Source: Candidatus Bathyarchaeota archaeon (lineage in GTDB: Archaea > Thermoproteota > Bathyarchaeia > 40CM-2-53-6). Taken from it: 64,000 bases of DNA. The stretch spans positions 1,472,001-1,536,000 of the forward strand of contig CAVTBR010000001.1 in NCBI GenBank assembly GCA_963733055.1, read 5' to 3'. The stretch's first letter is position 1. Each line of letters opens with the position of its first letter. The notes beneath the pieces are model-generated. The model was not told the origin of the DNA. It did not search any database and saw only the letters and a list, made by a program, of their open reading frames with translations. The translations under genes were made by a program, and so were the position numbers. This document shows positions 44,863-56,370 of this stretch, one piece after another.

Positions 44863-45170
44863 GGGTCGGCGTTTTGGTGGTAACCCACCTTCTGTTTTAG
44901 GCGACATTTATCTGATCGGGATACCCGCGCCTCGGGCGGGGGTTCATTGGCGCCTATTATCCCTTTCACGGCGTGGGCGGGCATTTCACCCTTACCCCCA
45001 GCCTCATCAACGCAAGCGCATCATATTCCACGACTGGGGGAGGTTTCTTTCTGCGCCCTAACCCGGCCTCTCAGCCGACACCTCACGATGCCACGCGTCC
45101 GCCACGTGGGTGGAGTTTCCTCAGGCTCATCACATACCGAGCCCGGAGTCGCTCGCCAACTCGCCAACCC
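44863..45170 (-). ncRNA. rnpB: RNase P RNA
   Basis: Minus strand has GAGGAAACUCCACCCAC and AACAGAAGGUGGGUUA (P4 halves); P1 GGGUUGGCG/CGCCGACCC; ~308 nt. Confidence 0.9.
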
Positions 45171-50991: not shown

Positions 50992-51034
50992 TAGGCTTAC
51001 AGTCAAAACACTCTGCAAAATTCCAGTCCGTTCA
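50992..51034 (+). other. 16S pre-rRNA processing stem, 5' arm (BHB with 52658-52698)
   Basis: ACTC-TGCA-AAA-TTCCAGTCCG pairs with CGGACTGGAA-TGCA-AAT-GAGT. Confidence 0.8.
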
Positions 51035-51095
51035 ATTTCCTTAAACGGTCGTAAATCCGAAACGAATCGTCCTAACTGCAAGGTTTAGCTTGCTA

Positions 51096-52647
<1,552 letters not shown>

Positions 52648-52796
52648 TAGAAAACTATGAGCGGACTGGAATGCAAATGAGTAACGACTGTAAGCCTAAC
52701 CGAACGATAATGCGGCTGCTGAGCTTCGCTCAGTGGCTAAGGGTGTAGTGGTCATTCGCTAGAGTGATCATGATGAACACCGTGCATAGGCCTCTA

Positions 52797-52820
52797 ACGT
52801 TAGACGAATGTGGGTTCCAT
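52797..52820 (+). other. 23S pre-rRNA processing stem, 5' arm (BHB with ~56187-56210)
   Basis: CGTTA-GACG-AAT-GTGGGTTCCAT pairs with ATGGAATCCAC-CGTC-TGA-TAACG. Confidence 0.75.
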
Positions 52821-52824
52821 AGTA

Positions 52825-55800
52825 AGTTCGACATGATAAGCCACCTGAAGAATGGCTTGGCTTGGGCACTGAAGAAGGGCGTGGCAAGCTGCGATATGCT
52901 CCGGGTAGCCGCATGCAGGCTTCGATCCGGAGATACCCGAATAGGACTTCCTGCCGCGGGCGATACCTGCGGCGCTCCGACAAGGAGCGGGAACCTCCCG
53001 AACGGAAGCATCCAAGTAGGGAGAGGAAGAGATACCAATTGGTATTCCCTTAGTAGCAGCGAGCGAAGAGGGAAGAGCTCAAACTGAACCTGCATAGGAA
53101 ACTATGCGGGGTTGTGGGGTTATAGGGCCCGACCGCGCCCTAACCAGAGAAGTTGAAGTGGCCTGGAACGGCCCACCGAAGAGGGTGAAAGTCCCGTAGA
53201 CGCAATCTGGAAGGGTTTGGGTTGGGATCCCTGAGTACTACGCCCCGGATTGGGCGTAGGAAGTTGGGAGGAAACAACTTCCAAAGCTAAACATGTCCCA
53301 AGACCGATAGCGCACTAGTACCGCGAGGGAAAGCTGAAAAGTACCCCGGAAGGGGGGCGAAAAGAGCCTGAAATCAGGTGGTCACAGTCAGTGCACGGCC
53401 CGAAAGGGTAGATCCCCTCCGAAGGAAACTGCGGCAACGCGGCTGTACGAGGAGGGGGGACCAGGGTCGTGCGTTCCGTTTTGTACCACGGGCCGGGGAG
53501 TTCATTCTTGTGGTGAGGCTAAGAGTTTGAAGCTCGAAGCCGCAGGGAAACCAACAAGTTCGCAACGTCGCAAGACGCGAGGAACGAGATCTGAAAGGGT
53601 CTGAAATCACAGGGATGAAACTCGAAACCGAGTGATCTAGCCTTGGGCAGGGCGAAGCCGGGCGAAAGCCCGGTGGAGGTCCGAATGGGTGATGACGTGC
53701 AACTCTCTCCAATGACCTGGGGCTAGGAGTAAAAGGCCAATCTAACTCGGTGATAGCTAGTTCCCGCCGAAATATCTCTCAGGATAGCCTGGCTGGAGGT
53801 GGCTAACGGGGTAGAGTACTGATTGAAAAACAAGGACTCGAAAGGGTCCACTTTTCATTCAAACTCCGAATCCGTTAGCGCCGTAGAAGGCTGGAGACGG
53901 ATGTAGGGCGTAAGGTCCTATGTCGCGAGGGGAACAACCCAGACTAGGGTTAAGGTCCCAAAATCCTGGCTAAGTGTAGAAATAGAAAGCGGTCCTCAAC
54001 CACAGACAGCTGGAAGGTAGGCTTAGAAGCAGCCATCCTCCAAGCAGTGCGTAACAGCTGACCAGCCGAGGTTGGGGGCGCTGAAAACGAACGGGGCTAA
54101 GCCAGGTACCGTTACCCTAGAACACGGTGCATAATCGTGTTGGTAGGCGGGCGTTGTGTCTGGGCGGAAGCTGGGTTTTGAGATCCAGTGGACCGGTCAC
54201 AAGTGTAGATCCCGGTGGTAGTAACAGCCATAGAGGGGTGAGAATCCCCTCCGTCGAAGGGGCAAGGGTTCCCCGGCAATGCGTCGTCAGCCGGGGGTAA
54301 GTCGGTCCTAAGGCTACCCTTAGCCGGATAAGCCGAAAGGGAAACCGGTTAAAATTCCGGTACCACGGAGATACGTGCGGCAACGCAAGTTCATGATCTG
54401 ACGTTCAGGGATAGGTCGAGTGGGGCCGTCGCCCCATTTAACCCGTTAAGACCGGGGAGTACCGTAATGGTGAGAACCGGTCGAAGCGGGGAATAGCCGC
54501 CCGTCTTAGGGTGGTTCAGCTGATTCCTCGAGCCACTGAAAAGGAGCATGAAATGGATTCTCCGTGCCCGTACCTAGATCCGACACAGGTGCCCCTAGGT
54601 GAGAAGCCTTAGACGTATCGGGTTGAACTTAGGCGAGGGAACTCGGCAAATTAGCCCCGTAACTTCGGAAAAAGGGGTGCCTGAAGTTTTGGCGCAAGCT
54701 GGAACATCAGGTCGCAGTGACTCGGGTGAAGCGACTGTTTAATAAAAACATAGGGAACCGCCAGCGCGAAAGCGTGTGAACGGTTCCTGAGTCCTGGCCA
54801 GTGGCGGTATCTGAAATTTGGGTTCAACCAAACCAAGGACCGCTAAACGCCGGGAGTAACTCTGACTCTCTTAAGGTGAACATGGTTTGCCTTAACCCAA
54901 TCCGGCCAAATGCTGGAACACCTGAGAATGTCACGCTACCCCAACAAAACCTTCAAGGAAAATAAGGAAACTTGGAGGAAGAGTTGGAGTGACAAAGCGT
55001 TGACTGCAGGCAATCAGCAGGAAAGACTGGAATGAAATATTCCAGAATCCTCAGAGACTTTACGCCGGAAATCGCAGATCAGCGATTAAGATAAAGTCCG
55101 ACCCCTTCAGCGATGTAGGGAGGCTTGCAATTTGCAGGTCCGCCTCGAATTTTCTTGCGAGGTCAAATCAAAGTAACAGATGTGAGCCAAATGCCTTGTC
55201 GGGTAAGTTCCGACGTGCATGAATGGATTAACGACTTCACCGCTGTCCCCGCCTAGGGCCCGGTGAACCCACAACCTGGACGAACAGTCCAAGGTCTTCC
55301 AGCGGGGCGAGAAGTCCCCGTGGAGTTTTACTGCAACCTGTCGCTGGGATGTGATTGCGGGTACAGAGCGTAGGTGGGAGCCTTCGAAGTCAACTCTTTG
55401 GGGTTGATGGAGGCGCCAATGTAACACCACCTATCTGCGGTCGCATCTCTAACTGTACCTTGACGTACAGAACAACGGCTGGCGGGCAGTTCGGCTGGGG
55501 CGGCACCCCCTTGAAAAAATATCAAGGGGGCCCAAAGCTTGGCTCATCCCGGACAGAAACCGGGAGTAGAGGGCAAGACCAAAAGCCAGGCTGACTGGAT
55601 GCTCATCAGCAAGGCATCCAGACGCGAAAGCGGGGTCTAGCGATCATTCATGTCCCCATTGTTGGGGGCTGGATGTGACAGAAAAATTACCCCGGGAGTA
55701 ATTGGCTCGTCTCCTCTGAGAGTCCCCATCGACGAGGAGGATTGGTTCTCCGCCGTCGTCCCTTCCCATCCTGGGCCCGCAGCAGGGTCCAAGGGCGCGG

Positions 55801-56182
55801 CTGTTCGCCGATTAAAGGGGAATGCGAGATGGGTTTAGACCGTCGCGAGACAGGTCGGCCTCTACCTGCTGGAAGTGCTGGTTGCCTGAGGGGAAGGCGC
55901 CCCTAGTACGAGAGGAACGGGGTATCGCAGCCTCTAGTTTACCGGTTGTCCGACAGGGCACTGCCGGGCAGCCACGCTGTCGAGGATAAGGGCTGAAAGC
56001 ATCTAAGCCCGAAGCCTCTCCCGAAAAAAGGCAGCCATTCTAACCCACGACACTCGGTAACGGGCGTCAGGGTTGGACGAGGGCTCCCAAAGAAGATGGG
56101 TTTGATGGAGCAGGCGTGTACGCACGAAGACTTCGGTCGACGTGTTTAGCGCGCTGCCCCCAATCGCTCAAGGTGTTGAATT
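52825..56182 (+). rRNA. rrl: 23S rRNA (contains a group I intron); ends approximate
   Basis: Conserved LSU motifs including sarcin-ricin loop AGTACGAGAGGAAC; terminal helix AGTTCGACAT/GTGTTGAATT. Confidence 0.97.
54878..55184 (+). ncRNA. Group I intron at L1931 with no homing endonuclease
   Basis: Inserted in CTTAAGGT^AGCCAAATG; ends in G; P AAATGCTGGAA, Q AATCAGCAGG, R TCAGAGACTTTAC, S AAGATAAAGTCC. Confidence 0.92.
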
Positions 56183-56370
56183 GAAAATGGAATCCACCGT
56201 CTGATAACGCAAAACGGAGGCCTATGCACGGTGCGAACCTAACACCACACCACCACCGTGCCACAGTTACATTGACTCAGCGGAGCGTCCGCGGCTACTC
56301 CGAATCAAGATTGAGGTTGTACGCGTGGCTTAAGTACTACTATTTACCTGAGTTGTACCTGGTCACCCCA

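Follow-up and report, generated by a model that had tools for sequence, protein, structure and literature searches.

Archaeal group I introns have been catalogued in a survey that lists 39 of them, 27 belonging to subtype IB4 and 14 of the IB4 introns lying at position 1931 of the large-subunit (LSU) rRNA, some in Thaumarchaeota (Nawrocki, Jones and Eddy 2018, NAR 46:7970, PMC6125680). About half carry LAGLIDADG genes, one example (IB4.1, from Thaumarchaeota archaeon N4) is 281 nt long, and there are cases in archaea in which a group I intron and a bulge-helix-bulge (BHB) intron occupy the same host gene (PMC6125680). Here we describe an insertion at nucleotides 54878-55184 of a 64,000-nt stretch of a Candidatus Bathyarchaeota archaeon genome (assembly GCA_963733055.1, contig CAVTBR010000001.1, positions 1,472,001 to 1,536,000; the whole stretch is hereafter called the window). 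The insertion is, very probably, a complete group I intron without an open reading frame (ORF), a member of the widespread L1931 family that interrupts the host's only 23S rRNA gene. It resembles the archaeal IB4 introns at LSU/1931 in its archaeal 23S host gene, in its site, in the existence of small ORF-less or LAGLIDADG-bearing forms and in its co-occurrence with a BHB intron. Unlike the introns of that survey it has a Bathyarchaeota-type host, from a phylum outside Table 1 of PMC6125680, and unlike the survey's same-gene cases the BHB intron here is in the 16S gene, with the group I intron in the 23S gene. What is new is the host: the element itself, clean and without an ORF, belongs to a known family, its kind and its site having been catalogued in archaea since 2018. 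It extends the range of archaeal hosts of group I introns to a Bathyarchaeota-type archaeon and leaves the known kinds of archaeal intron unchanged. A literature search combining Bathyarchaeota with group I introns found no report of such an intron.

The bacterial introns at L1931 have the same site and the same core and differ in host domain; the one from Thermotoga has reportedly been shown to self-splice, by Nesbo and Doolittle in 2003. Among the matches listed from our own pattern scan (described below), the core recurs in Gaiellales, Chloroflexi, Nitrospirales, Thiomargarita and other bacteria. According to a report on rRNA insertion sequences in Candidate Phyla Radiation (CPR) bacteria, LAGLIDADG_1 is common there at 23S position 1931 (J Bacteriol 2024, PMC11270868). 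The same domain at the same site is seen in two genomes related to our host (G018 and G065, below), whereas 54878-55184 differs from the CPR insertions in lacking an endonuclease and in having an archaeal host.

What identifies the insertion as a group I intron, and where exactly does it begin and end? The Rfam covariance model RF00028, whose gathering score is 50, matches 54868-55120 over model positions 1-253 with 56.2 bits (E = 1.4e-11 for the whole window), and a genome-wide search with this model returned no match besides this intron. In the alignment to the LSU_rRNA_archaea model, 308 bases following model position 2030 have no counterpart in the model, and the exon sequence permits a single cut: CUCUUAAGGU(54877) / intron 54878-55184 / (55185)AGCCAAAUGCC. 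The U preceding the cut aligns with base 1929 of a 2902-nt copy of the Escherichia coli 23S rRNA. In the customary numbering of 2904 nt this base would be U1931, provided that the two bases absent from the copy belong upstream of it; m5U1939 would be the first U of GAAAUUCC. The site falls within conserved domain IV of the 23S rRNA. The minimum free energy (MFE) fold of the intron reaches -101.5 kcal/mol (z = -4.16), and none of 100 shuffles folds as well. Taken together, a covariance model above its threshold, a complete P1-P10 core and the covariation described below argue for group I identity. The first-pass annotation of this locus, made from the sequence alone, had noted that group I introns were already reported in archaea, had proposed one with these same borders in an archaeal 23S gene and had suggested a covariance-model search as a check. 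The earlier reports indeed exist, the 307-nt extent is the only one that the exons allow, the host gene is archaeal and the model match clears its gathering score. The subtype label IB4 is the name given to the archaeal L1931 members by Nawrocki et al. (PMC6125680).

The secondary structure (Table 1) is that of a compact group I ribozyme lacking P2. In P1 the strand UUAAGGUGAA pairs with UUUGCCUUAA, placing U54877 opposite G54889 at the 5' splice site, and a U.G pair occupies this position (alignment columns 10/29) in 18/18 homologues. Five base pairs of P10 can form between UGGUU (54883-54887) and the AGCCA that opens the 3' exon. A P10 of this length is reached by 46 of 1000 loop shuffles, and a P10 of at least 5 bp is present in 6 of 18 introns (this one included), tracking the exon change AGCC/AGCG; P10 is supported for the present intron and only weakly suggested as a family feature. 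P3 pairs in 99.1% of alignment cells, with two of its pairs changed on both sides. The P7 strands, G(A)GACUUU and AAAGUCC, enclose the 3' strand of P3 together with P8, and within P7 columns 313/357 hold AU in eight introns, UA in six and GC in three. The MFE fold gives P1, P3-P6a, P8, P9, P9.1 and P9.2, and the centroid fold gives P7; the appearance of P3 in one and P7 in the other is expected for a pseudoknot. The conserved 3' tail, GUAACAGAUGUG, closes with G55184, a terminal G that is invariant in 18/18 introns. The longest stop-to-stop frames within the intron measure 60 and 51 aa, and a Pfam search of them returned no match at E values up to 1. The P1 with U.G at the splice site, P10 (TGGTT/AGCCA), P3 (TCCGGC/GCCGGA), a co-varied P7, the terminal G and the absence of an endonuclease ORF had all been read from the letters in the first-pass annotation, and each of these readings holds.

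How far is this structure shared and preserved across the family? A degenerate pattern of the conserved core was scanned against one genome per prokaryote species and found at least 120 stretches in archaea and bacteria. After removal of L005 and of the duplicates L109 and L119, simple exon-flank rules parsed 35 L1931 introns among the matches listed, or 36 with 54878-55184. Half of these (18/36), namely the present intron and 17 other ORF-less ones, made up the covariation alignment, which leaves out 14 introns longer than 350 nt that carry ORFs or large inserts and the P2-bearing L021, L041, L081 and L121, whose P1 was misplaced by MAFFT; the fifth P8 pair, split by MAFFT, was dropped from the pair count. 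Across the 18 introns 95.6% of 1039 cells pair, compared with 81.4% in shuffles and 35-44% when the partner strand is slid. A total of 31 of the 59 pairs have changed on both sides, and 0/500 shuffles reach any of five measures of covariation. The most variable helices are P6a, P8, P9 and P9.1. At columns where at least 15 of the 17 other introns agree, 54878-55184 departs five times, within a range of 0-23 for the set; thus, the intron core is undecayed.

Table 1. Features of the rRNA operon and of the 23S intron, in window coordinates
Feature	Position	Strand	Basis or remarks
16S rRNA gene (archaeal)	51096..52647	+	RF01959, 1452.5 bits
BHB mini-intron in 16S, 50 nt	51974..52023	+	Insert after RF01959 model position 854
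23S rRNA gene (archaeal), only copy in assembly	52824..56183	+	RF02540, 2756.9 bits
Group I intron, 307 nt, ORF-less, site L1931	54878..55184	+	RF00028; borders from exon sequence
P1 hairpin, 54871-54880/54886-54895	54871..54895	+	5' splice site after U54877
P3, 5' strand	54901..54906	+	UCCGGC, pairs with GCCGGA 55064-55069
P4 (54911-54916/55014-55019), P5 (54921-54924/55007-55010), P5 extension (54925-55006)	54911..55019	+	Extension by fold only
P6 (55020-55021/55049-55050), P6a (55027-55033/55039-55045)	55020..55050	+	Loop L6a = 55034-55038, 5 nt
P7, 55054 and 55056-55061 with 55093-55099; A55055 bulged	55054..55099	+	Centroid fold, covariation
P8	55071-55075/55082-55086	+	
P9 hairpin, GNRA loop GCGA 55110-55113	55103..55120	+	6/7 pairs changed on both sides
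P9.1 (55124-55129/55133-55138), P9.2 (55143-55147/55158-55162), tail, terminal G55184	55124..55184	+	P9.2 by fold only
3' exon start, pairs in P10	55185..55189	+	

Among close relatives the intron is rare and its site is mostly empty. A blastn search of 61 related genomes found it in its own genome and in G018, of the same genus, only (2/61), while RF00028 matched eight of 151 relatives, three of them above threshold. The G018 intron occupies the same L1931 site, is 702 nt long and encodes a LAGLIDADG_1 protein (PF00961, E = 1.1e-26), its extra DNA sitting in loop L6a, flanked by intron bases 154 and 164. The intron of G065, a bin from a sister genus, is 640 nt long at the same site and likewise encodes LAGLIDADG_1 (PF00961, E = 4.5e-23). 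The region is present in 20 of 59 family genomes. Within the genus, eight genomes have it, and the intron is found in two of them (the host and G018) and an empty site, reading CTCTTAAGGT/AGCCAAATGCC, in six, including G013, with an exon identity of 99%. In the rest of the family 10 genomes have an empty site, G065 has both an intron and an empty site, and G063 has another intron ending 8 bases upstream. Given the LAGLIDADG gene in L6a of the G018 intron and the six empty sites in the same genus, 54878-55184 looks like the endonuclease-less stage of a homing intron. On this history, the homing cycle would be laid out within a single genus, in which six sites are empty, one intron has its endonuclease gene and another lacks it.

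When the 36 L1931 introns are placed in a quick maximum-likelihood tree, 54878-55184 comes out as sister to the G018 intron (Shimodaira-Hasegawa-like approximate likelihood ratio test, SH-aLRT, 93), inside a clade with six Nitrososphaerota introns (SH-aLRT 97). The nearest named relative among the matches listed is an L1931 intron of Ca. Nitrosotenuis sp., 79% identical over 197 nt. Five bacterial rows (L032, L039, L049, L050 and L103) stand apart from this clade, with weak support (86).

Other insertions were seen around the same site. The G065 bin holds a LAGLIDADG-bearing allele (L006/L161, on contig 25) and an empty allele (L149, on contig 48), perhaps because two strains are present, because the gene has two copies or because the bin is mixed. 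In G063 (L150), and also in G086, G047 and G043 (L008, L009 and L010, respectively), an intron distinct from the L1931 ones has its end 8 bases upstream of L1931 and before CUUAAGGU; it probably sits at the L1923 site. G047 and G086 have a further insert, of ~530 and ~700 nt, near the equivalent of 54746. In G133, a genome assigned to the same class, AT-rich and divergent 23S fragments on three small contigs contain three group I matches (L005, L012 and L013), and the L1931 intron among them clusters with one from Aenigmatarchaeota (SH-aLRT 96). This suggests either that the bin includes foreign contigs or that the intron belongs to a lineage of its own.

Does the intron still splice? We infer that it does, because the host has a single 23S copy, the site is conserved and the core is intact and co-varying. 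A 516-nt exon probe finds one 23S location in the genome (a three-contig assembly, 96% complete). RNA evidence was sought in Logan contigs from four metatranscriptome runs (X1, X2, X4 and X10), matched to 51000-56300 at 97% likeness. Depth inside 54878-55184 is 4.29, 2.23, 13.8 and 0, vs. 2.2e5-4.6e5 in the flanking bins, and exon-exon joints cluster with their ends at 55185. Many of the joined contigs read CUAAGGU, unlike CUUAAGGU of the host, and so come from other organisms.

Several observations weigh against a complete, still-active IB4 intron. The RF00028 score exceeds its threshold by 6 bits only. The structure scored for covariation was derived from the present intron itself, and the search pattern fixed four of the P7 pairs and part of P3. 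The putative assignment to IB4 rests on homology to the Nitrososphaerota L1931 introns. In the stretch between P1 and P3 the intron has CCC at 54896-54898, where U is found in 15 of the other 17 introns and A and A in all 17; these bases are three of its five departures, and G018 reads CCA there. Its branch in the tree is long (0.34, vs. 0.067 for G018). The RNA contigs are 60-110 bases long with joint sides shorter than 30, they come from peat and wetland communities, and their depths are summed over all organisms. The exact 54877-to-55185 joint is absent among the 15 joints listed, and the host's own 18 exon bases directly before 55185 occur in four contigs only, all from X4. Intron-less relatives, G013 among them, have identical flanks over 30 bases upstream and 14 downstream; therefore, neither the joined contigs nor the drop in depth can be assigned to this gene. 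Finally, a 23S group I intron at an L1931-type site in Simkania is reported to remain unspliced (Everett 1999).

Read together with the lost endonuclease and with RNA contigs that hold no direct splicing evidence, the long branch, the CCC and the Simkania precedent would fit an insertion that is a group I intron by descent and no longer splices, being either kept in the mature 23S rRNA or the cause of its fragmentation, as reported for Simkania. We consider this improbable. All helices of the core are intact, as are the U.G pair, P10 and the terminal G. The number of departures at conserved columns is ordinary, the host has no second 23S gene and the insertion falls in conserved domain IV; the depth of intron RNA, ~1e-5 of that in the flanks, points the same way, though it is confounded by relatives. 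An active group I intron is thus the reading that we carry forward. Our literature search found no self-splicing test of an archaeal group I intron among the papers listed, and a compact 307-nt intron without P2 is a candidate for the first biochemical test of one.

If splicing follows the mechanism of the family, the transcript would fold into the P3-P9 core and the internal guide UUUGCCUUAA would pair with the 5' exon as P1, setting the U54877.G54889 pair at the cut. A free guanosine held in P7 would attack after U54877, while the neighboring guide bases UGGUU would hold the 3' exon in P10. G55184 would next move into the site of the guanosine, and the released end of the 5' exon would attack after G55184, joining CUUAAGGU to AGCCAA. 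On the same primary transcript, EndA would cut out the 50-nt 16S intron and cut the processing stems of 16S and 23S, and RtcB would seal the ends. The two chemistries might even be coupled, with pre-23S rRNA first released and circularized by the endonuclease and ligase, in line with the 23S back-joints in RNA contigs described below, and the ribozyme then splicing inside the circle, an idea that we regard as possible but rather unlikely. If it were true, ribosome assembly in a single-operon archaeon would depend on a ribozyme step with a fixed place in its order.

The 16S insertion is a real BHB intron in the same operon. Mature 16S rRNA needs the cut GCUGAA / 51974-52023 / ACUUAAAGG, and the sequence around it can be read as a canonical hBHBh' motif, in which a BHB lies between an outer and an inner helix: the outer helix is AAG/CUU (51965-51967/52025-52027), the central 4-bp helix GCUG/CAGU (51968-51971/52018-52021) and the inner helix UCUCAUG/CGUGAGA (51975-51981/52011-52017), with bulges AA/U at 51972-51974 and UC/A at 52022-52024; in each bulge the cut follows the second base. 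The MFE fold of this stretch does not draw the motif and shows a competing exon hairpin instead. An insert of 25-53 nt is present at the same place in 22/22 family genomes parsed (L162-L183). Its ends are conserved (UUCUC...GAGACAGUU), its inner helix co-varies, and hBHBh' is kept in 21 of the 22, the exception being G070, where the 3' bulge is unclear. The genome encodes the enzymes that such an intron calls for, with EndA (PF01974) found twice, at 83.9 and 54.7 bits, and RtcB (PF01139) once, at 576.8 bits. In the four RNA runs, 7, 6, 8 and 2 contigs show a 51973-to-52024 joint; its sides are shorter than 30 bases and other archaea lack the insert, and these contigs cannot be assigned to the host. 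The first-pass annotation had called the presence of two splicing mechanisms in one pre-rRNA notable. The BHB intron that it placed in the operon is there, as is the group I intron, so that both kinds are indeed present; the emphasis was overstated, as group I and BHB introns are already known together in one gene (PMC6125680).

BHB introns are also known from the 16S genes of Thermoproteales (Jay and Inskeep 2015, PMC4496867). Compared with these introns, 51974-52023 is alike in its canonical hBHBh' form and in being cut after the second bulge base. The family insert differs from them in its size, 25-53 nt only, in being fixed (22/22) rather than sporadic and in its non-Thermoproteales host.

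As the genome encodes EndA twice and RtcB once, and as BHB cuts are used elsewhere on the transcript, the 23S insertion might itself be removed by the archaeal splicing endonuclease, as a BHB intron merely resembling a group I intron. A BHB motif was looked for at the 23S junctions and rejected: with the junctions set in the register of the 16S intron, two of the four central-helix positions pair (UAAG vs. GAUG, judged by eye). A full ribozyme core also co-varies around it, and we give this explanation hardly any credence. An assembly chimera, in which an intron from another organism's rRNA was merged into the contig, is just as improbable: the assembly is of metagenome type with 5.28% contamination and rRNA genes are prone to mis-assembly, but the host contig is 1,572,808 bases long, the exons continue unbroken, and the second intron-bearing genome of the genus has the homologous, sister intron at the same site on a contig of 2,363,725 bases.

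Parts of the remainder of the operon were inspected for further introns. None was found in the first half of the 16S gene or in 52824-53560 of the 23S gene, and none apart from 54878-55184 in 54700-56183; by arithmetic from the alignment, the intervening 53561-54699 exceeds the span of the model by just 14 nt. At 56038-56085, ~40 extra bases past LSU model position 2882 fold into a plain hairpin, which looks like an expanded variable helix rather than an intron. The RNA contigs also contain back-joints at the complementary processing stems, from 56200/56202 to 52809 for 23S and from 52650/52654 to 51015/51016 for 16S. These are as expected for circular pre-rRNA made by a splicing endonuclease and a ligase, their source organism being uncertain. 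Elsewhere in the window, an archaeal RNase P RNA lies on the reverse strand at 44869-45164 (176.3 bits).

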